Of a stretch of 64,000 bases of DNA, positions 20,161 to 61,333 are shown one piece after another. Location of the stretch: UHGV virus genome UHGV-1384413; one strand, 5' to 3'. Made by a program: the position numbers and the translations under genes. This DNA is from a virus. Position 1 is the first letter of the stretch. Every line of letters begins with the position of its first letter. The notes beneath the pieces are model-generated. The model was not told where the DNA came from. It made no database searches and saw nothing but the letters and a program-made list of their open reading frames with translations.

Positions 20161-20622
20161 TTACTTAAACAACAGTTCAAAATAGTGCAAAATTAACAGA
20201 AGTTGAATTACGCCTAGCACAACTGCAAGTATGTTGATCTTAGAATCAAAAAACTTCTTAACTTTTACCCTAAAAGGCTCCTTAATGTCCTTTACGATCC
20301 TATTTATAGATGATTTCATATCCCTGATTACCATCCTAAACATTAGAGACGGATCTTCCTTCTCTGTAACGGAATCGAAAACATACTCTCTTCGGTCATA
20401 AGGACCTCCAGATCTGCGTATTAACCTCTCCACAGATACCTCGTACGACACACCTGTAACGTAATCATCTATGACAAGTAGTGACGGGTCTTTATCGTCC
20501 AAAGGTATCAAAGTTATCTTTCCAGATTTTGTTAAAATTTCTCCTTTTTCAAGCAGTGTGTACCAATGCTCTCTACCAAGGTTGTTGAGGCACGTTTTTA
20601 CATATTTAACAAACATCGTCAC
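20161..20622 (-). CDS. hypothetical protein with C-terminal hydrophobic segment (153 aa)
   Basis: ORF-track ORF. Confidence 0.5.
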   Translation of the reverse strand: MTMFVKYVKTCLNNLGREHWYTLLEKGEILTKSGKITLIPLDDKDPSLLVIDDYVTGVSYEVSVERLIRRSGGPYDRREYVFDSVTEKEDPSLMFRMVIRDMKSSINRIVKDIKEPFRVKVKKFFDSKINILAVVLGVIQLLLILHYFELLFK

Positions 20623-22762: not shown

Positions 22763-23047
22763 CTACCAGGTCACTGTCAAGTAGGCAACTGTGTTATTTT
22801 TCTCCGGGGAGATGCCAACAACATCCACCTGCAGACCTCCTGCCCTCAAATCCCCAACGATGTGTGGGAAGTAGTCTGAGAGGTGTGATGGAAGATTTAT
22901 CGAAAATCCGCATCCCAGAAAGCCTGCTAACGCCTTATTTTGTATCTCCCCTACAATCGCATCATAAATGGAGTTAAGCTCGTCAGGGAGAGTTACAGGA
23001 CGTTTTAGCGCTAACTGGTGCAACTTGTCCTTAGCACTCATTTTCAT
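22763..23047 (-). CDS. hypothetical protein (94 aa)
   Basis: ATG at 23047 overlaps upstream stop (ATGA) and follows GGAGG. Confidence 0.5.
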   Translation of the reverse strand: MKMSAKDKLHQLALKRPVTLPDELNSIYDAIVGEIQNKALAGFLGCGFSINLPSHLSDYFPHIVGDLRAGGLQVDVVGISPEKNNTVAYLTVTW

Positions 23048-23577
23048 TTCAAGTCTGCCTCCGGAGGTGCCAACCACATAAATGGTGGTAGGTCTAAACG
23101 GTTCTTCTTGTCCCACACAAAATATGCATATGCTTGCCCGTCAGTTCTGCCATTCGATTGGAATGATGGACGCTTAGATATTGTGATCACAGTGGTAGGG
23201 GCATTATCAAGCCACCATTCAAATCTGGCCTTGCTTTCCAGAAAATTAAGACGCAAAAGCATAATAACTACGTCGGCATCTTTCAACGCCTTGTCCACAA
23301 ACTCACGAGCCAGGCTGTACGGCGGGTTGGTGATAATACAGTCAACATGGTTGTATTCTGTATTCAGATAGTCAACACCTTCTTGGATTTCTCCCCATGC
23401 AGATCCTAACGGCATACGGGAGTAGAACACACCTGAGGCGCTATTCCTGCAAGGCTCCAAATAGGTCCAATCTTCTGGGAACGGAATGAGGTCATACAAC
23501 CCTTCTGCACACCACTCTGGTGTCACATATTCATCATAGGCGTTACGTTGTTCGTCAGGTTTTCTAGCACAAGTCAT
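23044..23577 (-). CDS. DNA N6-adenine methyltransferase-like (small Dam-like)
   Basis: DCIITNPPYSLA catalytic motif IV (NPPY). Confidence 0.55.
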   Translation of the reverse strand: MTCARKPDEQRNAYDEYVTPEWCAEGLYDLIPFPEDWTYLEPCRNSASGVFYSRMPLGSAWGEIQEGVDYLNTEYNHVDCIITNPPYSLAREFVDKALKDADVVIMLLRLNFLESKARFEWWLDNAPTTVITISKRPSFQSNGRTDGQAYAYFVWDKKNRLDLPPFMWLAPPEADLK

Positions 23578-23595
23578 GCAAATCTCCAGATCATA

Positions 23596-23622
23596 AAAGC
23601 CCTCCGAAGAGGGCTTTAAGAT
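23596..23622 (-). terminator. rho-independent terminator
   Basis: AAGCCCTC-TTCGGA-GAGGGCTT hairpin followed by TTTATGAT on minus strand. Confidence 0.65.
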
Positions 23623-23628
23623 TAATGT

Positions 23629-24678
23629 TTAAGCTTCTTCGATAATTCCTGCGCCCAGGATTTTTTCATTGAGCTCTTTTGCTGTTTTAATAATATTGTC
23701 CACCAGACGCTTGCGGGTCTTATCTTTAACCTGAACTTCTTCACCTCCGTTCAGGGTGGTTTTCAATTGGGACAAAATGTCCTGAAGCTCTACCACAGAG
23801 AATCGCTGCAGATCTTCCGAGGTAATCTCACTCAGTGCAATCTTAACGGTCTCACCACTCTCCATCTGCAGATTCAGGAACACAGTGTGAACATCACCTT
23901 TCATACCATTTGCTTTTGCAGACTCAACAGCGTGAACCAGCTCGTCCAGAGATGTGCATTGGTGAATCTCTGGCAGGCCTGCTTCGCCTAGCACACCTTC
24001 TTCATCACTTTTTGCCAAAAGCTTTTTCGGTTTCTGCCCATTCTGAATGCGCTGAATGTTTTCATCGTCCAGAATGATAGCACCAGTTCGAGCTGCCAGC
24101 TCTTCTCCATCCAACCACACTTCTCCACCAGCCGTGATGGATGCGATCTCATCTTCTGTCAGAACCCCACCGTAGTATTTTTCGATCAGGCGTTCAAAAC
24201 GTTTCTTCCAGTAGTTGACCTGAGTATTCATGTTCACACCGTTGCCATAGGTGCCACCTTGATAGTAGTGGAACATAAACTCTGTGTCCGGAGCCACAGT
24301 TCGTTCTTTGCAACCCAGCCATAAGATTGTTCCTGCTGAGCAGCACATCCCTTCAGCGTGTACAACAACGCTTGCCTGAGACTCGCGGAATGCCTGCAAA
24401 TACGCCATGGCAATGTGGACGCAACCACCAGGGCTGTTAACAATTACACGGATACTTTCTTCCGGCTGTGCCATACGAATTGTTTGCAAACGGGACATAT
24501 GATCCTGCAAATCATCAAGATCGTCAATATAAAGCACGTGGTCAACAACTGGCGTTGGGTAGCTGTATGTTTCCATAATACCACCAGGCATACCAAACAT
24601 TTTATTACTCATCGGTTCGAAGCCGTTCTGTTTTTCTTTCATGCCGTGTACCATGGTGCTGCGAGGTGTTAAATTCAT
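23629..24678 (-). CDS. ClpP-family (S14) serine protease-like protein with about 150-aa C-terminal extension
   Basis: VNSPGGCVHIAMAY, MCCSAGT (Ser) and MFHYY (His) blocks parallel ClpP catalytic motifs; ATG with AAGGA RBS. Confidence 0.65.
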   Translation of the reverse strand: MNLTPRSTMVHGMKEKQNGFEPMSNKMFGMPGGIMETYSYPTPVVDHVLYIDDLDDLQDHMSRLQTIRMAQPEESIRVIVNSPGGCVHIAMAYLQAFRESQASVVVHAEGMCCSAGTILWLGCKERTVAPDTEFMFHYYQGGTYGNGVNMNTQVNYWKKRFERLIEKYYGGVLTEDEIASITAGGEVWLDGEELAARTGAIILDDENIQRIQNGQKPKKLLAKSDEEGVLGEAGLPEIHQCTSLDELVHAVESAKANGMKGDVHTVFLNLQMESGETVKIALSEITSEDLQRFSVVELQDILSQLKTTLNGGEEVQVKDKTRKRLVDNIIKTAKELNEKILGAGIIEEA

Positions 24679-24738
24679 GTGAGGTCCTTAATGTTGGAAA
24701 GTTAAAAGCGATCTATTTAAACCTGATTCTCATTTACT

Positions 24739-25050
24739 TTATTTAGCAATTACCATGGAATACTTACAATTGTCAGAAGCATCACAGGTCAACGATTGCC
24801 AGTCTACCACATACCACGTGTCATTGTCAACAATTACTTTATCCCCTGTTCTGTAAAATGTGTTGCTTTCAATAACACGGGACTCAGTGAAGAATCGGTG
24901 TCTTCGCTCACGTAGTAGCGCCAAGTTGATTATGTTACCACCGCTGTCCTTAATCCACACATTCTTGTATCCTTTGTTTGCCAAAATTGTCTCACCGTTA
25001 TAGACAAATAGGCAGTATATCTTATTCAGTCTCTCTTGTATTGTAGCCAT
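24739..25050 (-). CDS. hypothetical protein (103 aa)
   Basis: ORF-track ORF. Confidence 0.5.
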   Translation of the reverse strand: MATIQERLNKIYCLFVYNGETILANKGYKNVWIKDSGGNIINLALLRERRHRFFTESRVIESNTFYRTGDKVIVDNDTWYVVDWQSLTCDASDNCKYSMVIAK

Positions 25051-25149
25051 ACTGTCATTCTCCTTGTTTTGTTCGATAATACCTAAAACTTATCTGTTTG
25101 TCAATAATTGTTTTAGATATTTAAGGGTGGAATAACCACCCTTTTTGTA

Positions 25150-25938
25150 TTACTCGGAAACAGGCGTCCAAATATGATTTGCACGATCCTTAATAAGATT
25201 GAGTGCAATCTGACGACCCAACCCGGAACGAACGACATCATCTGGGCTATCAAAGCTAATCATCCCAACCTCAGGATCTGGATGACGAGTAAAGAAATCC
25301 GTTACCCATGCAAGCCCAGACTTACCAGGGATGTCACGTTGGCTATTATCACCCATGATTACAAGTGTGGCCTGATCAGAGATCCTTGTGATAATTGACA
25401 ACATCTCTTCAGGGTTAGTTTGCTGTGCCTCGTCAATTAGGACAAAGCATCGCTCATCGAAACTACGACCACGAATGCTTTCAACTTCACAGATCTCGAT
25501 ACGACTGTTCTGACCATCTCCCAGCATTGCGGCAAAAGCACCTTTGCCAACACGACGACAAATCGTGTCCATCATGCTTCGGAGATAGGGCCACAGTTTC
25601 TGCATTGCGTTTCCAGGTTTAAACCCTGAAGTCTTTCCTGTCTGAACGTAAGGGCGTGCAACAATGATCTTATCAATCTCGTTCTTACGCAAAAGATCAC
25701 CTGCATATGCGGATGCCATGAATGTCTTACCGGATCCAAACACACCGTTTACAATAATAATCTTACGCGATCCTAGATAATCAAGATACTTTTGCTGCTT
25801 TTTGTTCATTGGTCTGAGAGCTGGAGCTGTGTGCTCTCGTTCGTCAGCAAATTTCTCAGCAGCCTTACGCAGACGATCAGATTTGCGAGCCTCTTTGGCT
25901 TCATCACGCATGCGTTTTGTTTCTTTAGCTCGACCCAT
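25150..25938 (-). CDS. phoH: PhoH-family ATPase
   Basis: Walker A GVFGSGKTF and PhoH-like length; ATG with AAGGAG RBS. Confidence 0.8.
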   Translation of the reverse strand: MGRAKETKRMRDEAKEARKSDRLRKAAEKFADEREHTAPALRPMNKKQQKYLDYLGSRKIIIVNGVFGSGKTFMASAYAGDLLRKNEIDKIIVARPYVQTGKTSGFKPGNAMQKLWPYLRSMMDTICRRVGKGAFAAMLGDGQNSRIEICEVESIRGRSFDERCFVLIDEAQQTNPEEMLSIITRISDQATLVIMGDNSQRDIPGKSGLAWVTDFFTRHPDPEVGMISFDSPDDVVRSGLGRQIALNLIKDRANHIWTPVSE

Positions 25939-25976
25939 GTTGGGACTCCTTTCAGATTGAGATGTGTCAAGAACTT

Positions 25977-26327
25977 CTACTGCAACAGTTTTTCAATAGC
26001 CGCTTCCATGCTGCTTGCAACAGCCTGAACTCGGATATTCATCTCTTCTTGGCGGATCAGCTCCTTAAGCTCTTTAACGGTGAATTCTTTGGAGAAACCT
26101 TCCACCATAATCTTGTGCAAGGCTTCTTGCGTGTCTACTTGCAAGAACTTTTCCAGTTTGTTGGCAGAGGCCTCTAAATCGGCCCGAATACGTGGGTCAT
26201 CTGTTCGGTTCAGCATTAGGCGTAAGCCATCAAGATTGGTAGAAATAGCGTCTGCATGTTGAGTAACCAACCGTGGCAAAATGAGATCTACAAACTTACT
26301 GGCTAAATCAATACGCTCTTGTGTCAC
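25977..26327 (-). CDS. hypothetical protein (GTG start)
   Basis: ORF-track ORF; start codon GTG overlapping upstream stop. Confidence 0.45.
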   Translation of the reverse strand: MTQERIDLASKFVDLILPRLVTQHADAISTNLDGLRLMLNRTDDPRIRADLEASANKLEKFLQVDTQEALHKIMVEGFSKEFTVKELKELIRQEEMNIRVQAVASSMEAAIEKLLQ

Positions 26328-26437
26328 TGTTGCACCCCCTCTTCATCTCCATGATATTTCTTTTCACGCTTGTGTTTTTTCTTAAGCTCAAGCGCAATCT
26401 CTTTCTTGTACGCCTTCTTCAAGGCTTTTTTAGCCAT
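26324..26437 (-). CDS. small lysine-rich protein (37 aa)
   Basis: ATG with GAGGAGG RBS; below ORF-track cutoff. Confidence 0.35.
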   Translation of the reverse strand: MAKKALKKAYKKEIALELKKKHKREKKYHGDEEGVQQ

Positions 26438-26499
26438 TTGGCACCTCCTCTGCTTTCATTACGATAATTATAACCAACTTACCAAAGCTTTGTCAACGA

Positions 26500-27149: not shown

Positions 27150-29273
27150 TCAGCAACCACAGCTTCCGTAGTGCTTAACCCGTTCTATAACTTCCGCTTG
27201 CTTACCTTTGTTGTAAGGTCGGGAGTTTGGACTGGACAGATACCCAGATACACGTCTAATCACACTGATCGTTCCATCTTCATGGTTTCCGCACTCTGGG
27301 CATACAAAGCCTTTAGCTGTTGCACTGAACTCACCAGAGAATCCACACTTAAGACATTTATCCACAGGTTGGTTAATACCAAAATACATAATGTGTTTAT
27401 ACCCGAAATCGACAAGGGATTCCAAAGCATCCAGGTTGTTTTTCAGGTTAGGTGTTTCTATGTATCCAATGTTGCCGCCAGAAGAGATCATAGCAAAACC
27501 TTCCTCATACTTCCACTTGTCAAAAGGTGAGCTATTGATCCACACGGGTTGGTGGAAACTGTTGGTAAGGTATTCGTGCTCGTGCTTCAACACTTCAGGA
27601 TATTCACGATCTAGACATGTTGCAGCCTTATAGCACAAGCTCTCTGAAGGAGTGCCGTACAAGCTGAATGCCAGACCACTTTCTTTTTTGTACCGATCAC
27701 AAGCGTCTTTCATGTGTTGAAGGATCCCAAGAGCTAAGGACTTGTCTCCCTCTCTGCCTAAAATCTGGCAGGTTTCATACACACCAATATACCCAATACT
27801 TATGGAAGCATACCCGTCATAGAAGAGTTTATCAATACTCTCTTCAGGATCCAGGCGAGCAAGGGCCCCTTCACACCACATGATGGGGTTCTGCCCTGCC
27901 TTTGTTCCTTTTAGACGGTTAACCCTTACAAGGTGAGCCTCGTATGCCAGATCCAAGTACTCGTCAAGAACTGCAAAGAAATCAACACCTTCCGTTTTAG
28001 CTTTTGCCGCAATCATTGGTAGGTTAAGGCTAACAACACCTAAGTTGAATCTGCCAAGGTATTTCTCCTCTCCTGTTTCCAAGTCATTGTATTTGCTAAG
28101 AAAACTCCGGCAACCCATGCTTGTGACATTACCTTCTGTTGAACCTGTCACTTTTCTATTTAGTGGTACAGATACGAAGTCAGGATAAATCCGCTCTGCA
28201 GAGCATTCCAGAGCTAATCGTTTCAAATCATAGTTAGGATCCCCGGGGTTCATGTTGATACCCTCCTCCAGGAAGAACAGCACCTTAGGGAACACAGGTG
28301 TGATACGTTCTTCACCAAGACCCATTTTGTGGACTTTCAGGTAGTTTTTGGTAATCATTCTACCAAAGATTGAGGTATCCAGTCCTAAACTTAATGTGAT
28401 GAATGGGGTTTGCCCGTTGACAGAAGTTAACGTATTGATTTGGTATAGCAAAGTTTGCATACTATCAAACACGTCTTTATCCGTCATTTGCATTGCAACA
28501 GTCTCAGCATCAGGCAACCATTGTTCCTGACAAAATTTAAGATTCTTCTCATAGGTTGCTTCAGCATACTGCGCCAGATAATGATCAATATGGCTCATGG
28601 TCTGACCACCATATTGAGCACTAGCTACTGCACTAGAGATTTGGCTGAGGATTGTTGTTGCAACCCCTATTGACTTCGGCTTACTGACATGGGCGTTGCC
28701 AATGTTGAATCCGTTTTCCAGCATATCCGGATAATTCACCAAACAACAGTTTGTTAACGGACTGATCAGATAGTCAAGATCATGCACATGGATGAATCCC
28801 TTGTTGTGCTCTTCGGAGACACGATCTGGCAGTATCTGTGTTGATGCAAGGTGTTTGCTAAGGATACCTGCAAGCAGGTCACGATGAGTATGTACATGAT
28901 TAGTGGGCTTATTTGCGTTTTCTTTTGTAAATTCATCACAAGTTCGATCCAAGAAGCCACTAATATCTGCAAGCAGTTTTCCACCTGCCTCTCTGTTATT
29001 ATCTCTTGTCTGTCTATACTGGATATATTCTCTGGCTGCACATTTTAAACCCATATCCATAAGAGCATCTTCAACAAGGATATGGATATTTTTTACAGAG
29101 ATCGTGCACTGGTCGGTTGGTAGATTGTTGGCAACAACTTCATTAACCGCACAAGCGATCCGGTAAGCTTCTTCTTCAGTATGCCCAGATTCAAGTAAGG
29201 CGGACTCTGCCGCCTTGATTACCTTAACTCCGTTATAGACCTCTTCTCTACCGTCCCGTTTTACAACTTTCAC
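27150..29273 (-). CDS. nrdD: anaerobic ribonucleoside-triphosphate reductase (class III)
   Basis: C-terminal glycyl-radical-like RRVSGYL motif and CLKCG...CPECG zinc site; GTG start with GGAGAG RBS. Confidence 0.85.
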   Translation of the reverse strand: MKVVKRDGREEVYNGVKVIKAAESALLESGHTEEEAYRIACAVNEVVANNLPTDQCTISVKNIHILVEDALMDMGLKCAAREYIQYRQTRDNNREAGGKLLADISGFLDRTCDEFTKENANKPTNHVHTHRDLLAGILSKHLASTQILPDRVSEEHNKGFIHVHDLDYLISPLTNCCLVNYPDMLENGFNIGNAHVSKPKSIGVATTILSQISSAVASAQYGGQTMSHIDHYLAQYAEATYEKNLKFCQEQWLPDAETVAMQMTDKDVFDSMQTLLYQINTLTSVNGQTPFITLSLGLDTSIFGRMITKNYLKVHKMGLGEERITPVFPKVLFFLEEGINMNPGDPNYDLKRLALECSAERIYPDFVSVPLNRKVTGSTEGNVTSMGCRSFLSKYNDLETGEEKYLGRFNLGVVSLNLPMIAAKAKTEGVDFFAVLDEYLDLAYEAHLVRVNRLKGTKAGQNPIMWCEGALARLDPEESIDKLFYDGYASISIGYIGVYETCQILGREGDKSLALGILQHMKDACDRYKKESGLAFSLYGTPSESLCYKAATCLDREYPEVLKHEHEYLTNSFHQPVWINSSPFDKWKYEEGFAMISSGGNIGYIETPNLKNNLDALESLVDFGYKHIMYFGINQPVDKCLKCGFSGEFSATAKGFVCPECGNHEDGTISVIRRVSGYLSSPNSRPYNKGKQAEVIERVKHYGSCGC

Positions 29274-54736: not shown

Positions 54737-55620
54737 TAATTTGTAGCTCTCGTAAAACCTCCCTAATTGCGGGGAAATCTTTATTATTGACACCACCAAC
54801 CTGTCATGGTAACATGATAGAGGCTTCGAAGAGAGATCGAAGGTATGGTAACAGTGTGTTAATTTAGATAATCCGCAGCGAAGCATCCGAGAGGATGAAC
54901 GTTCAACGACTAGTCGAAAGACGTAGAATCAAGCGATTCGAAACGGGAGGGTGAATGTGTAATACTAAAAAAATGTATGGATTGCCAAAGAGTTCTGCCT
55001 CTTGATGATTTCTTTTTATCATCTAAGAGCAAGGATGGATACTCAGGTACATGCAAGGAATGCTATATGTACTACAGGAAGAATGGATCTCGTAGAAACA
55101 AAAATATGGTTAAGAGAGATGATGCAGCATCTTTTGTTCAAGACTTGCTGAAGAAAGGTGAGCTTTTTGAATGTAAATCTTGTCATGAAAGTATGCTTGC
55201 TGATAGTTTTTACACAAAGCGTGACTATGGTAAAGTGTATCTGGTTACGAACAGGTGTAAGATGTGTGAAAAGTTTTATCAGATTGAGAAGAAATTTCAC
55301 ATAACAAAAGATGAATACTATCGTTTACTCTCAGATCAAGATCATAAGTGTGCCATTTGTAGAATATCTCTTGATGAGTATAGGACGCAAGGGTACAGAG
55401 ATTTCTTTTGTGTTGATCATGACCATAAAACTGGTGCTGTAAGAGGGTTGCTTTGTGATAAATGCAACAGAGCTTTAGGGTTCTTCCAAGAGGATGAGGA
55501 AACCATTCTTAGAGCAGCAGAGTATTTGCACATTCATAAGATATAGTCTGGTCTGCATGGAGACATGCAGCTGCCTGAAAATGGCGGGGCAAGACTAGCG
55601 ACCTTGCCCGAACATAAACG
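54737..55620 (+). mobile_element. putative group I intron carrying an HNH homing endonuclease gene
   Basis: Interrupts terL after Walker B; last exon base is T and last intron base is G; boundaries inferred. Confidence 0.5.
54977..55546 (+). CDS. HNH homing endonuclease
   Basis: CxxC zinc sites and DHDHKTGAVRGLLCDKCN HNH core. Confidence 0.7.
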   Translation: MDCQRVLPLDDFFLSSKSKDGYSGTCKECYMYYRKNGSRRNKNMVKRDDAASFVQDLLKKGELFECKSCHESMLADSFYTKRDYGKVYLVTNRCKMCEKFYQIEKKFHITKDEYYRLLSDQDHKCAICRISLDEYRTQGYRDFFCVDHDHKTGAVRGLLCDKCNRALGFFQEDEETILRAAEYLHIHKI

Positions 55621-56742
55621 ACGCAATTCGAATGGGAGCAGATAGACTACCTGATGTCTCGTTTGCGATCTCAGTCAAAGTATCCATCAAGAATGGTTAT
55701 CAGCTGTAACCCCGACTCAGAACACATGCTTGCCAAACTGGTTAGGTGGTGGTTGGACGATGAAGGGTATCCAGATCCGGAGAAATGTGGTAAGAAAAGA
55801 TATTTTATCCGACGCGACGGTGAATTTATTTGGGGAGACTCTAAAGAAGAGTTAATAGAGAAATACACCACGGTTAACGGACTGGGTGTGGAGATCAAGC
55901 CAAGACCGTTGTCATTCTCGTTTATAGGCGCAACAATTTTCGATAATCCTGTCTGCTTGAGAGACAACCCAGAATACCTTGCTTTCCTTGAAGGTCTGCC
56001 AGAGCTTGAAAAAGCCCAGCTTCTTCATGGAAACTGGTTTGCCAAACCTGAGGGTGCAAACTATTTCCAAAGATCTTTCCTTCGGGATGCCGATAGAGTA
56101 CCTCTTGGATCAGTATCTTGCAGGGCATGGGATAAGGCAGGAACCGAGAGAACTTCCGGTAATAAATTTCCTGACTTTACTGCCAGTGTTAAGGTAAGTA
56201 AAGATAGCGACGGCTTTTATTACCTGTCCGGGGATTATTGTCCTGAGAACGTGGATGACGGTAGGTATTCCACAGGTCTGGAAGGAAAGTTCTGTAAAAA
56301 GGCTGGGGAACGAGATGTGATCATCAGGAAACAGGCGCAGTTTGATGGAGATGATTGCATAATCGTATTTTCTGTGGACCCCGGTCAGGCAGGTAAGAGT
56401 GAGTTCTTAACCTCGTCCAGATCCTTGCTCGCCGAAGGGTTCAGGGTTGAAGAAGATCCAATGCCTTCCAACAAATCTAAGCTGACAAGGTTCTCACCTT
56501 TTGCCAATCTTGCCCAACAAGGAATGGTGAGGATTGTAAAATCCAGTTTCCATCCTGACACTCTGGAAGCATTTCTGACTGAACTTGAAAAGTTCAACGG
56601 GGAAAGATCAACATTTAACAGAAAAGACGACTGGGCCGACTGTGTAGCTTCTGCGATTAATTTCCTGGAGAAAGAGGAGGTAGCGCTGCCTTGTGTGATT
56701 CCATCAATCTCATCACCTTCTATGTTCAAGCGTTTTATCTAA
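55621..56742 (+). CDS. terL: terminase large subunit, exon 2 (nuclease C-terminal part)
   Basis: In-frame continuation; acidic RNase H-like nuclease blocks RAWDKAG, VFSVDPGQ, DWADC; exon start inferred. Confidence 0.6.
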   Translation, partial: TQFEWEQIDYLMSRLRSQSKYPSRMVISCNPDSEHMLAKLVRWWLDDEGYPDPEKCGKKRYFIRRDGEFIWGDSKEELIEKYTTVNGLGVEIKPRPLSFSFIGATIFDNPVCLRDNPEYLAFLEGLPELEKAQLLHGNWFAKPEGANYFQRSFLRDADRVPLGSVSCRAWDKAGTERTSGNKFPDFTASVKVSKDSDGFYYLSGDYCPENVDDGRYSTGLEGKFCKKAGERDVIIRKQAQFDGDDCIIVFSVDPGQAGKSEFLTSSRSLLAEGFRVEEDPMPSNKSKLTRFSPFANLAQQGMVRIVKSSFHPDTLEAFLTELEKFNGERSTFNRKDDWADCVASAINFLEKEEVALPCVIPSISSPSMFKRFI

Positions 56743-56844: not shown

Positions 56845-58401
56845 GTGTCCAAAAAGAACCGCAGGAAACACAACGCCACAGCCAAAACTGTGAATAAATC
56901 TGGGAACGCAGGCGCACCAACTCATAATGTTCGTATGAGTGAGATCGGTTCTGGCGCACTTTCCCAAATTATGGCAGAATCACAATCTATGATGGTTGAG
57001 GAATTGCGTTGGCCTCAACTGATTGCCACAGTGGAGACTATGAAATGTGATTCCACAGTTGCTACTGCCTTAGATACAAAATATGTTTTCATCACGAAAG
57101 CATTCAATGATTTTAAGATCCTTTATAATGTTAAAAGTGAAGACTCTAAGAAAGCCGCCGAGCTTATAGAGTATTCTTTGCGTAATTTGGCAAACCAACA
57201 AACTCTTCGAGATATTGCAAGAAGCGCAGCTACCTTTAACGAGTATGGTTTTTCACTGTTTGAGAAAGTATACCGCAGAGAGAAAGAAGGTAAATACGCC
57301 GGGATGCTTCTTATTGATAAGATTGCGTTCCGACCACAGGCCAGTTTGTCCAGATCAGAGCCGTTTGTCTTTGACAAGAATAGTAGAACACTGACAGGTA
57401 TTTATCAATCACCTAATGCATTTCTAAACACGCAGAATGCACGCTGGGCTGGTCCTCTCGCTGCAATGCCTTCAAAAGGCTTTAATGAGCCTGAAATTTT
57501 CATCCCTGCTAAAAAGCTTATGCTCATGACTCTGTCAGGAACAGAATCTAACCCTGCAGGTGTGTCACCGATGATAGGTTGCTACAGATCTTTCCGTGAG
57601 AAAGTTTTGATTGAAAACCTTGAGGTTGTTGGCTGTTCCAAAGACCTTGGTGGTGTTCTTGAGCTGAAAATTCCTTCCAATATTTTGAACAAGGCCAGTA
57701 TTGACCCGAATTCAATGGAAGGGAGAATGGTTGCAGATCTTATGCTTGACGCAGCAAACGCCCATAGTGGGGAGCAAAGTTTCTTTATACTTCCGTCTGA
57801 TAGAGATAAGTCTGGTAAAGAGCTTTACTCCATGACCCTGAAGGGGGTTGATGGTATGGGTAAGCAGTATTCCACTAAAGATTTGATTGATGCCCGTAAG
57901 AAGGCGATTCTTGACCGTTTCGGTGCTGGCTTTATTAACCTTGGTAACGATAACGTTGGATCCTTCTCTCTGTCTGAGTCAAAACAATCTATTCATGGTC
58001 ATTTTGTTCAGCGTGATATAGATATTATCACTGAGGCCTTCAATAAAGATCTTATTCCACAGCTTCTGGCATTGAATGGTATCATCCTTGAAGATGATGA
58101 TATGCCTAAACTGAAACCTGGTCTGATTGAAGAAGTGGACATGGAGAGCTTCTCCAAGTTTGTCCAGAGGATCGGTGCTGTAGGTTACTTGCCAAAAACT
58201 CCTGCAGTAATTAATAAGATTCTTGAAGTAGGTGGGTTTGATGAAAGATTTGACGAGGACATGGATCAGGAAGAGCTAATGAAGCTCTTGGGCCAGGACA
58301 TCAGCAGGGCTGGCGATGGAATGGCTGCAGGATCCACTGGCAACGGCACTTCTAAGATGTCATCAACCAGAGATAATTCCATATCCAACATGGAAAATTA
58401 A
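56845..58401 (+). CDS. portal protein (by position and size)
   Basis: 518-aa ORF directly after terL; GTG start with GAGGGG RBS. Confidence 0.55.
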   Translation: MSKKNRRKHNATAKTVNKSGNAGAPTHNVRMSEIGSGALSQIMAESQSMMVEELRWPQLIATVETMKCDSTVATALDTKYVFITKAFNDFKILYNVKSEDSKKAAELIEYSLRNLANQQTLRDIARSAATFNEYGFSLFEKVYRREKEGKYAGMLLIDKIAFRPQASLSRSEPFVFDKNSRTLTGIYQSPNAFLNTQNARWAGPLAAMPSKGFNEPEIFIPAKKLMLMTLSGTESNPAGVSPMIGCYRSFREKVLIENLEVVGCSKDLGGVLELKIPSNILNKASIDPNSMEGRMVADLMLDAANAHSGEQSFFILPSDRDKSGKELYSMTLKGVDGMGKQYSTKDLIDARKKAILDRFGAGFINLGNDNVGSFSLSESKQSIHGHFVQRDIDIITEAFNKDLIPQLLALNGIILEDDDMPKLKPGLIEEVDMESFSKFVQRIGAVGYLPKTPAVINKILEVGGFDERFDEDMDQEELMKLLGQDISRAGDGMAAGSTGNGTSKMSSTRDNSISNMEN

Positions 58402-58468
58402 AAATTATCAACACAGGGGGTTGCAAAACCTCCTTTGGCGTGATAAAATAATCCACATGGGGAATAAG

Positions 58469-58888
58469 ATGCCACAGGAAGAAATGATTTCCTACGAAAT
58501 CATCTACGAACCGGACACTAAAGACGCTCACGGTGAGTGGATGAGTAAAGACACCATCAAAAAGGCTAAAGATAATTGGGACGCAGCATACGCCGCAGGC
58601 CTAGTTTCTGAAAACCTTTTCCACTTGACCTCTACAGATGCTTTCACTATTGAAAAGACGTGGATTCAAGAAGAGTTTGATGTTGTAGTAATTGGCACTG
58701 AGCAGGTCATCAAGGCTGGCTCTTGGGTTGCTAAAGTTAAATACAATAATCCTGAATTATGGGAAGCTAAGAAGGCTGGCATTGTTGGTGGCCTAAGCAT
58801 TCAGGCAACAGGTAATGTTGATGAAGAAACTGGTGAAATTACCAACGTAAACTTCGGGATCAGTGTTGTAGAAGAGGGCAATGAATAA
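58469..58888 (+). CDS. hypothetical head-module protein (139 aa)
   Basis: ATG at 58469 with GGGGAATAAG RBS; between portal and scaffold. Confidence 0.45.
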   Translation: MPQEEMISYEIIYEPDTKDAHGEWMSKDTIKKAKDNWDAAYAAGLVSENLFHLTSTDAFTIEKTWIQEEFDVVVIGTEQVIKAGSWVAKVKYNNPELWEAKKAGIVGGLSIQATGNVDEETGEITNVNFGISVVEEGNE

Positions 58889-59865
58889 TGTCTGAAAAAA
58901 CGATTACTATTAAAGAGAAGGGGATTGCCCTGTGCCATAAGGCGCAAGGCTATAGCGCTAACAACAGACCTGTATCTCTTTTGATGAAGAGTGATCTTCA
59001 GCCTGAGCAGTTGACAGACGATATTGTTAAGGCACTTCGCCAAGTTACTGTGGAGCTGAGTTTTGAAGAATACCTGCGTCGTTTCTTCGATATGTGGTAT
59101 GATGATGCCAAAGCACTTGCACACATGCTTGGTTTTGAGATTGAAGAGGAAGCTTGGGCTAAAGAGCATCCTGATTGGGAATGGGCACAAGCTGACGCAG
59201 AGTCTTGCATTGCATGGCTGGAAGAGCGTTGTGATAACGTGACCATTCATAAAGCTGCAAAAGAAGGCAAGCAGCTTAGTGTGGTAGATCAGTACAGTCT
59301 GTTAAAAACACAACAGATTTTTGAACAAGTAACCGCTGATCTCTTCGATAAAGAAGGGAACCTGATCAAGGCGGTACAGGAACCTACTGAGGTGGATAAA
59401 ACTACCGAGGTGGATGATGTTGCAAAATCCGCAAATACCGAGGAGAATCCGGTGGACGTAACCAAAACTAAAGAGTATCTGGATCTGCTGAAGCAAGTAG
59501 AAGAGCTGAAAGCAACCCAGAGTAAAGCTGAAGAAATCATCAAGGCCCAGGTTGAAGTTGAAAAAGCTAAAATGCTGGCTAAAGCTCAAGCTTTAAGCTT
59601 TGTTGGTGAAGAAGATCATGCAACCCTGGTTGACTTCATGCTGGAAAAAGCTAACGAACCTATCGTAGCTATGCTGGAGAAAGCTCAAGCCAAAATTAAA
59701 GAGCTGGAAGCAGAGGTGCATAAAACCAAAGAAGAGTTTGCCACCACTGAACATGGTAATGATGGCGAACCTGTTGTGGATGATATTGCAAAATCCGCAG
59801 AAGAAATTCTTGCTGAAAACGTTGCAAAAGCACTTGCTCGTGCACGTGCAGAATCTACCAAATAA
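58888..59865 (+). CDS. scaffolding protein candidate
   Basis: Acidic, Ala/Glu/Lys-rich coiled-coil C-terminal half; position between portal and capsid. Confidence 0.5.
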   Translation: MSEKTITIKEKGIALCHKAQGYSANNRPVSLLMKSDLQPEQLTDDIVKALRQVTVELSFEEYLRRFFDMWYDDAKALAHMLGFEIEEEAWAKEHPDWEWAQADAESCIAWLEERCDNVTIHKAAKEGKQLSVVDQYSLLKTQQIFEQVTADLFDKEGNLIKAVQEPTEVDKTTEVDDVAKSANTEENPVDVTKTKEYLDLLKQVEELKATQSKAEEIIKAQVEVEKAKMLAKAQALSFVGEEDHATLVDFMLEKANEPIVAMLEKAQAKIKELEAEVHKTKEEFATTEHGNDGEPVVDDIAKSAEEILAENVAKALARARAESTK

Positions 59866-59885: not shown

Positions 59886-60272
59886 ATGATTACCGCTCAA
59901 TATTCTGATATCGTGCTCGGCAAAGTTGATTCTAGCGATGCTGGCTACAATTTTAAAGAAATCAAGGTAACACTGACAGAGCATCACCACGCTGGTACTG
60001 TTGTAACAAAAACTGGGACCATCGCTAACGCAGACGGTTCTGATGTGTACGGCGTTCTTGTTGACCGTGCTCTTGTCAAAGATGCTGGTACGGTTCATCT
60101 TGCAAAACCGTTAGAAGTTGGTCAATCCTATAACCTGGTTGTTGCCGTTCACGGTGTTACCTTTGCAAAAGACATGCTGTTAGGTGCAGATGGAGCTAAA
60201 GCAGACCAAAGAATTCTGGATAAGTTGGAAGCTTTAGGTAACAAAGTTCACGTCCAAACTGTTGGTGAATAA
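59886..60272 (+). CDS. head decoration protein (gpD-like) candidate
   Basis: About 128 aa, immediately upstream of major capsid gene. Confidence 0.45.
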   Translation: MITAQYSDIVLGKVDSSDAGYNFKEIKVTLTEHHHAGTVVTKTGTIANADGSDVYGVLVDRALVKDAGTVHLAKPLEVGQSYNLVVAVHGVTFAKDMLLGADGAKADQRILDKLEALGNKVHVQTVGE

Positions 60273-60322: not shown

Positions 60323-61333
60323 ATGATTACTCGTAAAGATGAATTTGGCATTGTCGATTTAGGTGCTACTCTGGACCTTGTTCCGCGCCAATTCCGACTG
60401 ATTACCGGTATGGATCTGTTCGAAACCCGTCTCGGCACCTCAACAATTGCTCAGATCGAGCGTGTTGATGAAGTTGTAACCGACATTCCGGCACGCCGTC
60501 GTGGTGGTGAGCGTAACTATGTTGGTAGTGAACGTGCTCAGGTTAAAAACCTGAACATCCCGTTCTTCCCTCTGGACAAAGGCATCACTGCTGCAGATGT
60601 TCAGAACTTCCGTCGTTACTTCACCCCTGATGCTCCGAAAACTGTTCAGGATGTAGTAACCCGCGTTGTTCGCCGTATCCGTGTTTCTCATGAAGCACTG
60701 CGTGAGAAAGCGCTGTTCCAGGCTATTCTGGGTAAATCCTATGCGCCTGGTGACGCTACCTGCCAGTATGATTACTACACTCTGTGGGGTGTGTCTCAGA
60801 AGTCTGTTGAGATCGACCCTGCAAAAGCAGATCAGGATCCTATGGAGGTTCTGGAAGAAGCTCGTCTGCACATCGCACTGCAAGCTGGTGATAACGCAGC
60901 TGGCTATCGTATTGTAGCTCTGTGCTCACCAGAGTTCTTCAGTGCTATTACCCATCACCCGCTGGTAGAACTGGCATACACCTATTACGGCTCTGCTCAG
61001 GAACCTCTGCGTCGCCGTCTGGGTGCTGGCGGTCAAGACAGCGTATACCGTGTGTTTGAGCATAAAGGTATCACCTTTATCGAAGATATCTCTGGCAATA
61101 TTCCTAAGAAAGAAGCTCGCATTCTGCCGATGGGTATTGATCAGATGTTCCAGCTGCACTTTGCTCCGGCAGACGATGTTAACGAAGCAAACACTCCAGC
61201 ACAGGAACTGTACATGTGGTATAAACACTCTGCATACCTGCGTGAAGAGAAGATTGAATCTGAAACTTCTATGCTGGCAGTTAACACCCGCCCAGAGCTG
61301 GTTGTTAAAGCAACTCTGAAAAACGGTGACTAA
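60323..61333 (+). CDS. major capsid protein (lambda gpE-like family)
   Basis: 336 aa; blocks such as VVRRIRVSHEALREKALFQAILGKSY resemble lambda E as recalled; biased codon usage; strong terminator. Confidence 0.65.
   Translation: MITRKDEFGIVDLGATLDLVPRQFRLITGMDLFETRLGTSTIAQIERVDEVVTDIPARRRGGERNYVGSERAQVKNLNIPFFPLDKGITAADVQNFRRYFTPDAPKTVQDVVTRVVRRIRVSHEALREKALFQAILGKSYAPGDATCQYDYYTLWGVSQKSVEIDPAKADQDPMEVLEEARLHIALQAGDNAAGYRIVALCSPEFFSAITHHPLVELAYTYYGSAQEPLRRRLGAGGQDSVYRVFEHKGITFIEDISGNIPKKEARILPMGIDQMFQLHFAPADDVNEANTPAQELYMWYKHSAYLREEKIESETSMLAVNTRPELVVKATLKNGD

Follow-up and report, generated by a model that had tools for sequence, protein, structure and literature searches.

The virus genome UHGV-1384413, of which a stretch of 64,000 nucleotides was analysed (referred to here as the window), carries on its minus strand a gene for a ClpP-like protein, and this locus raises the question of which proteolytic task such a protein performs in a phage: maturation of the head, service as a subunit for the Clp ATPases of the host, interference with host ClpP, or a task of its own. 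The balance of evidence tips modestly toward the last of these, namely an active ClpP-fold protease of the cytoplasm that operates in the replication phase independently of ClpX/ClpA docking, is provided with a targeting C-terminal module and is distinct from the head protease. That it is not the head-maturation protease is the firmest part of this picture and is very probable.

The source genome is that of a Vequintavirus, an Escherichia coli myophage of the rV5/FV3 type. The open reading frame (ORF) coincides exactly with the one delimited in the initial annotation; it begins with ATG, preceded 7 nt upstream by an AAGGA Shine-Dalgarno sequence, and encodes 349 residues (aa). The gene corresponds to rV5 gp122 (rV5 Table S3) and FV3 ORF114, is 99.8% identical at the DNA level to its counterparts in phages S127 BCL3 and NHEP1, and has matches of at least 80% identity in 119 phage records, the annotated ones of which mostly name the product ClpP, ATP-dependent or protease-like protein. 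Since it has been annotated from the 2013 rV5 genome paper onward and is a full-length member of phrog_5410 (aa 24-344 of 349, E=3.9e-155; phrog_1827, E=1.7e-38), the gene and its ClpP-like nature are already known, and the family is a known, functionally uncharacterised one. Searches of the literature brought up no relevant functional study of phage ClpP-like proteins, Vequintavirus transcriptome or work on PaoP5 gene essentiality, and the 2026 structure paper on phi92 makes no mention of a protease. What is added here is a correction of the head module, the recognition that the C-terminal module is a small orphan domain and a sequence-based doubt about the "ATP-dependent" label.

A ClpP-like core with the serine and histidine contexts MCCSAGT and MFHYY had been proposed from the sequence, and profile, structural and alignment evidence agree with it. 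The Pfam CLP_protease hidden Markov model matches aa 59-169 above its cut-off (E=9.6e-13, 48.8 bits, cut-off 20.2), and a phmmer search of PDB sequences retrieved solely ClpP chains, with E-values down to 5e-8. An AlphaFold2 model built from a family alignment of 27 sequences has a predicted local distance difference test score (pLDDT) of ~90 across aa 45-215, and the top 50 Foldseek matches of this core in the PDB are all ClpP (E ~1e-10; target-normalised template-modelling score 0.62-0.71). By both methods the core has the ClpP (crotonase-like) fold, including a handle-like helix at aa 150-169. In pairwise alignment Ser114 and His137 fall on the nucleophile Ser97 and on His122 of E. coli ClpP, so that these two residues are kept on proper alignment; both are invariant in the 27 family members and in seven far more divergent phage homologues. 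The position of the catalytic Asp171 is taken by Glu186 in the phmmer alignment ("GGEVWL" vs "ERDFWL"); among relatives this position holds Glu, Asp (in ICP1, PWH3a-P1 and Sugarland) or Gln (in the 4MG/BIS47 group). The protein is thus likely an active serine protease in which the third member of the triad is not strictly conserved.

With bacterial ClpP (MEROPS S14; E. coli ClpP, PDB 1TYF/1YG6) the phage protein shares the fold, the serine and the general-base histidine, aligned within the conserved NSPGG and GxxxSxG contexts, and an acidic residue at the Asp171 position. It differs in being phage-encoded, in an identity of only 17-23%, in the replacement of Asp by Glu or Gln and in the addition of an N-terminal region of ~44 aa and a C-terminal linker and domain of ~135 aa.

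Whether this enzyme matures the head is answered largely by the head module itself, in which no protease had at first been seen. That statement is refuted by a Peptidase_S78_2 (XkdF) match directly 3' of the portal gene (PF14550; E=1.1e-17, 64.6 bits, cut-off 24), in an ORF that is open from 58316 and whose probable start after the portal stop codon is 58457. Homologues of this protein occur in 537 phage records and bear the name capsid protease in the Seed laboratory's curated ICP1 records. It has the portal-scaffold slot in common with the XkdF/Peptidase_S78_2 capsid proteases such as ICP1 gp125, and their fold is unrelated to that of ClpP. The gene is followed by one for a protein of 325 aa rich in Glu, Ala and Lys, whose composition and position between the protease and the decoration and capsid genes suggest a scaffold-like function, and the order of the block is the classical one of portal, protease, scaffold, decoration and capsid. 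The S78_2 protease is therefore likely the head-maturation protease. Its ORF, taken from 58316 to 58888, is a member of phrog_1530, which is named "DNA methyltransferase", and the same label stands on the gene in several GenBank records (e.g., HMD-6, ESCO13, anhysbys), others naming it prohead protease, peptidase or capsid protease; the methyltransferase label looks like a propagated annotation error, perhaps derived from fusion proteins in that PHROG.

The expression of the two proteases in phage ICP1 separates them further. The ICP1 head module (gp122-gp125) has the same architecture as that of the window, and ICP1 gp211 is 35% identical to the ClpP-like protein in the core. By RNA sequencing the ICP1 capsid genes gp122-gp126, among them the one for the Peptidase_S78_2 protease gp125, are classed as "Late", and gp208 (PhoH), gp209, gp210 and the ClpP-like gp211 as "Middle-late", within a range (gp176 to gp211) of nucleotide-metabolism genes that peak at 12 min (Barth et al. 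2020, PMC7567579). Transferred to the window, this would place the ClpP-like gene in a middle-late class with the nucleotide-metabolism genes. Because a separate S78_2 protease and a scaffold-like gene lie between the portal and capsid genes, and because in ICP1 the S78_2 homologue is late with the capsid genes and gp211 middle-late with PhoH, the ClpP-like protein is very unlikely to be the head-maturation protease. The initial annotation had already doubted a prohead role, and the doubt is upheld by these two observations as well as by the gene's own sigma70-type promoter and terminator.

Genomic location is in agreement with this. The gene is on the other strand from the portal gene, ~32 kb away, and outside the head module. 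Its minus-strand setting among PhoH and nucleotide-metabolism genes, described at the outset, is confirmed by PhoH and, further upstream, genes for NrdG, NrdD, glutaredoxin and NrdAB. Twelve contexts from distinct phage groups (this phage and 11 others) were inspected by hand, and in all 12 the ClpP-like gene stands among replication or nucleotide-metabolism genes and never by the portal. PhoH followed by none to four small genes and then by a ClpP-like gene of ~285-385 aa is found in FV3, ICP1, CR3, PWH3a-P1, BIS47, PH357 and KLEP7; shorter homologues lie amid replication and nucleotide-metabolism genes in PaoP5, Sugarland (T5-like), an N4-like Alteromonas phage and a T4-like jumbo vibriophage (D490). 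T4-like phages carry a head protease of their own, of the gp21 type. The members of the "ATP-dependent protease" families phrog_5410 and phrog_1827 (rV5 gp122, FV3 ORF114, ICP1 gp211, CR3 gp205, PaoP5 orf045, Sugarland gp45) have ClpP-like cores that are 24-60% identical and share this location, often with PhoH upstream.

A capsid-associated role beside the S78_2 enzyme, either as a second internal head protease or as a protease-scaffold fusion of the lambda gpC/Nu3 kind whose C-terminal helix-loop-helix targets procapsids, is improbable. In its favour, the nearest curated family by score is that of the ClpP-related head-maturation proteases (NF045542, E=1.1e-16; phrog_1684 over aa 70-258, E=9e-23), and the protease core with a helical C-terminal part is common to the phage protein, to these proteases (NF045542; phrog_1684, 94 and 133) and to the lambda gpC/Nu3 fusions. 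The NF045542 score, however, is 61.2 bits and remains below the cut-off of 120; the gene does not adjoin portal, scaffold or capsid genes, the head block is already complete from the portal through the S78_2 protease, scaffold-like and decoration genes to the capsid gene, and in ICP1 the expression of the homologue does not go with that of the capsid genes. T5-like, Pakpunavirus, N4-like and T4-like phages also have short homologues, devoid of the extension, in their early regions, and no internal in-frame start preceded by a Shine-Dalgarno sequence, as expected for a nested scaffold of the lambda C/Nu3 kind, was seen in the sequence of the gene.

Virion proteomics also speaks against this role. 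The mass spectrometry table of mature rV5 virions comprises 19 proteins, and gp122 is absent from those named by its authors (tail, fibre, baseplate, sheath, tube, capsid, decoration and portal proteins and gp133). The paper on CB7, with 26 virion proteins, does not contain the term "Clp", and CB7_5, encoded beside the portal, is the sole protease that its main text and tables mention; by gene order and annotation it is the presumed equivalent of the S78_2 ORF of the window. Among the peptides recovered from rV5 virions is KDEFGIVDLGATLDLVPR, residues 5-22 of the capsid protein; the coat protein thus keeps its N-terminus, untrimmed, and the scaffold or other internal proteins are presumably the substrates of the head protease.

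If the protein is not a head protease, it may still deserve its usual name and be a true ATP-dependent subunit of the ClpP type that works with the ClpX or ClpA of the host, replaces or supplements host ClpP and redirects these AAA+ unfoldases to substrates chosen by the phage. The fold, the serine and histidine in place, the handle-like helix, the Pfam match and the widespread annotation all accord with such a subunit; the surface on which the ATPases dock does not. The pocket of E. coli ClpP that receives acyldepsipeptides (ADEP) and the IGF loops is formed by V44, L48, F49, E51, A52 and F82 of one protomer and R22, L23, V28, F30, Y60, Y62, I90, M92, L114 and L189 of the adjacent one (bioRxiv 10.1101/2023.03.01.530711). 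It was mapped on the phage protein by a pairwise alignment anchored on the NSPGG, GxxxSxG and His motifs, at ~20% identity. In this alignment Y60 corresponds to R77, Y62 to I/V79, F82 to E99, I90 to H107, M92 to E109, F112 to T127 and L114 to A/S129, and the core helix segment L48-A52, with L48, F49 and A52, is missing. All 27 sequences carry the polar and charged replacements without variation, and the hydrophobic apical pocket for the IGF/IGL loops of ClpX/ClpA thus appears to be lacking. Since the pocket residues are replaced by invariant polar or charged ones, the "ATP-dependent" label is doubtful, and canonical docking of ClpX or ClpA is unlikely as judged from the alignment.

Other observations also disfavour an ATP-dependent subunit. 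The curated ClpP models, unlike the Pfam domain model, score far below their cut-offs (TIGR00493 clpP, 32.4 bits vs 308.6; PRK00277, 36.8 vs 249; PRK12553, 40.3 vs 228), the family and pairwise alignments reveal no clear similarity of the N-terminal region to ClpP axial loops, and no phage-encoded Clp ATPase is seen in the neighbourhood of the gene. Taken together, partnership with the host ATPases is unlikely. R77, E99, H107, E109 and T127 form an invariant charged/polar cluster on the surface that corresponds to the docking pocket (24349..24384 and 24298..24450, minus strand); it contains a His-x-Glu motif ("HAEG") and is kept in the 27-sequence Vequintavirinae-type family, not in the ICP1, PaoP5 and Sugarland homologues.

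The altered apical surface, together with the ClpP fold and an extra tethered domain, would also suit a mimic or poison that co-assembles with the ClpP or ClpXP of the host, or caps it, and thereby inhibits or redirects host proteolysis, its own catalysis being secondary. Phages do inhibit host proteases, as T4 PinA does with Lon. The strict conservation of Ser114, His137 and the surrounding motifs nevertheless argues for catalysis, and mixed rings with host ClpP are unlikely because of the ~20% identity to E. coli ClpP and the five-residue deletion in a core helix; a protein of this kind is very improbable here.

The preferred reading, that of an independent active protease, assigns a targeting function to the module that follows the core. 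The C-terminal extension noticed from the sequence is confirmed, with ~135-150 residues after the core; the coiled-coil character attributed to it is not, and the models display instead a disordered linker and a small domain. A long coiled coil was ruled out by the AlphaFold2 models, and a crude heptad scan gave no coiled-coil window. In the linker, whose length varies within the family, pLDDT is below 50 at aa 223-239. The domain that follows is acidic (isoelectric point 4.9). Two independent models, with pLDDT 60-89, fold its aa 240-343 into a helix and a beta-hairpin followed by a short helix and a helix-loop-helix. When 14 family members and divergent homologues were scanned with Pfam, nothing significant was detected in this domain, and its alignment profile had no match at E<=0.01 in a set of 5.8 billion proteins; Foldseek against viral models gave one match at E<0.001, an unnamed 303-aa protein that probably belongs to the same family as the ClpP-like protein. 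A comparison of its C-terminal end with the helix-extended-loop-helix motifs HeH, SAP and Rho_N was dropped, as it was a resemblance of pattern with no significant profile or structural match.

The extension differs by lineage. That of the Certrevirus CR3 protein is homologous to it (hhalign probability 86%, E=5e-6) and is the only one detectably so among the extensions compared; hhalign found no significant similarity between the rV5-type extension and those of ICP1 or PWH3a-P1, which are unrelated or have diverged beyond recognition, and the homologues of PaoP5 (182 aa), Sugarland (203 aa) and AD45-P2 have none. The C-terminal domain is thus a small alpha/beta and helix-loop-helix module without recognisable relatives outside Vequintavirinae. 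At the other end of the protein pLDDT is below 50 for aa 1-38, and N25, F28, G29, Y40 and P41 are conserved in the family; this region may be a propeptide or an equivalent of the axial loop.

The gene apparently forms a two-gene transcription unit with the 103-aa ORF directly 5' of it, to which BIS47 and CR3 have weak homologues in the equivalent position. The promoter in front of this ORF matches the sigma70 consensus in 11 of 12 positions and was independently predicted by the rV5 authors as P121, and the hairpin that follows the ClpP-like stop codon is identical to their terminator t122, with -14.9 kcal/mol (both in rV5 Table S4). The T4-late-like promoter motif of rV5 is confined, according to the same authors, to genes 27-66. 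Because the ClpP-like gene belongs to the block of PhoH and ribonucleotide reductase genes, it would be expressed with the replication and nucleotide-metabolism genes.

Several points weigh against the preferred reading. Profile scores bring the protein closer to ClpP-related head-maturation proteases (NF045542, 61 bits; phrog_1684, phrog_94 and others) than to cellular ClpP (32-40 bits), and its layout of protease, flexible linker and helical C-terminus is that of a protease-scaffold fusion. Prohead proteases are often lost from mature virions, so the absence of gp122 from virion mass spectrometry is weak evidence. The gene of an abundant virion protein, gp133, lies 3 kb downstream in the same minus-strand block, and for this reason position is not decisive for a non-structural role; the distance to the head module on which the initial annotation relied is real, at ~32 kb, and is a weak argument by itself. 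Since the rV5 authors found sigma70-like promoters throughout the genome, the timing cannot be read from the promoter type by itself. The docking-pocket argument comes from pairwise alignment at ~20% identity and not from superposed structures, the acidic third residue of the triad is Gln in the 4MG/BIS47 group, and no experimental work on gp122 or any close homologue was found in the literature.

The features of the locus and of the head block are collected in Table 1.

Table 1. Features of the ClpP-like gene, its surroundings and the head block, in window positions.
Feature	Position	Strand	Evidence or remark
ClpP-like protease gene	23629..24678	-	
N-terminal region, aa 1-44	24547..24678	-	Predicted disordered; conserved N-x-x-F-G-x-P-G ... 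Y-x-Y-P motif
ClpP-fold catalytic core, aa 45-215	24034..24546	-	AlphaFold2, Foldseek, phmmer
Ser114 codon	24337..24339	-	Position of E. coli ClpP Ser97, nucleophile (pairwise alignment)
His137 codon	24268..24270	-	Position of E. coli ClpP His122 (pairwise alignment)
Glu186 codon	24121..24123	-	Position of ClpP catalytic Asp171 (phmmer alignment)
Linker, aa 216-239	23962..24033	-	Low-complexity, disordered, ~25 aa
C-terminal domain, aa 240-349	23632..23961	-	Helix, beta-hairpin, short helix, helix-loop-helix
Rho-independent terminator-like hairpin	23593..23614	-	GCCCTC-TTCG-GAGGGC-TTTTAT, just after the ClpP-like stop codon
103-aa ORF	24739..25050	-	rV5 gp121, phrog_5456
Sigma70-type promoter	25076..25104	-	TTGACA-17-TATTAT, 5' of the 103-aa ORF
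PhoH-like ATPase gene	25150..25938	-	phrog_170, E=3.5e-75; upstream neighbour
TerL exon	55654..56742	+	Head block (55.6-63.9 kb)
Portal	56845..58401	+	Head block
XkdF-type Peptidase_S78_2 protease	58457..58888	+	Pfam PF14550; phrog_3017 head maturation protease
Scaffold-like 325-aa acidic protein	58888..59865	+	E 14%, A 12.6%, K 10.5%; isoelectric point 4.7
Head decoration protein	59886..60272	+	Head block
Major capsid protein	60323..61333	+	Phage_cap_E; head block

Some further observations concern the neighbouring genes. The gp133 homologue (20161..20622, minus strand; phrog_7821, "virion structural protein"), a predominant virion protein in rV5, is encoded well inside the minus-strand block of non-structural genes, and its C-terminal segment (ILAVVLGVIQLLLILHYFELLF) is hydrophobic. 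A 177-aa ORF (23044..23577, minus strand) that lies a short way beyond the terminator matches only the C-terminal half of the DNA methyltransferase phrog_799 (positions 199-381 of 458); this ORF shares ~70 nt with the one after it (22763..23116) and is kept at the same place after the ClpP-like gene in Certrevirus CR3, with 62% identity. NrdD is a single ORF of 707 aa (27150..29273, minus strand) in the window vs two pieces split by an HNH endonuclease gene in the annotation of FV3 (23526..26444), which indicates that the content of homing endonucleases varies between close relatives. In the head block the match of the TerL exon to the large terminase is confined to the C-terminal part (phrog_979, positions 285-621 of 642), and the exon is preceded by an Endonuclease VII/HNH-like ORF (54977..55546, plus strand), which fits the interruption of terL by an intron and homing endonuclease described for rV5.

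Another observation relates to database records. About 18-23 records of "Campylobacter phage" with C. jejuni as host (MG065677, MG065658, MG065689 and others) encode proteins 96-100% identical to those of this Vequintavirus, for the ClpP-like gene and the S78_2 protease alike; the host assignment of these unannotated records looks doubtful.

The course of events that would best accommodate these data begins with transcription of the 103-aa ORF and the ClpP-like gene as a unit from their own sigma70-type promoter. The product would be a ClpP-fold serine protease with Ser114, His137 and Glu186 at the three positions of the catalytic triad, probably active and probably oligomerising as ClpP does, that is, self-compartmentalising. 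Lacking the hydrophobic ClpX/ClpA pocket, it would probably need no Clp ATPase of the host or contact one in a non-canonical way, and the lineage-specific module on its flexible linker would most likely direct it to a substrate, a partner or a location. Its role would most likely be the cytoplasmic proteolysis of host or phage proteins during the replication phase, e.g., in takeover, turnover or regulation, and head maturation would be left to the XkdF/S78_2 protease acting with the scaffold-like protein.

A more specific proposal is that these proteins constitute a distinct class of phage auxiliary proteases that have lost the docking surface, carry interchangeable C-terminal targeting modules and destroy specific host proteins (e.g., factors of defence, of regulation or of the nucleoid) during the replication phase, possibly with the participation of PhoH or the 103-aa protein. 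The altered apical surface, the lineage-specific C-termini and the linkage to PhoH are compatible with it, and this linkage may simply be an inherited gene order; the proposal is speculative and rather unlikely as it stands.

For this group of viruses the analysis describes a non-structural ClpP-like protease carried by hundreds of large virulent phages, including candidates for therapy and biocontrol (rV5-like phages, ICP1 and Pakpunavirus). Its usual label, ATP-dependent Clp protease proteolytic subunit, implies a cooperation with host ClpX or ClpA for which the sequence gives no support. The corrected map of the window assigns head maturation to the XkdF/S78_2 gene adjoining the portal, which is mislabelled as a DNA methyltransferase in several databases, and places the ClpP-like gene in the PhoH/nucleotide-metabolism module, where the substrate of the protease is a reasonable, if not urgent, target for experiment.

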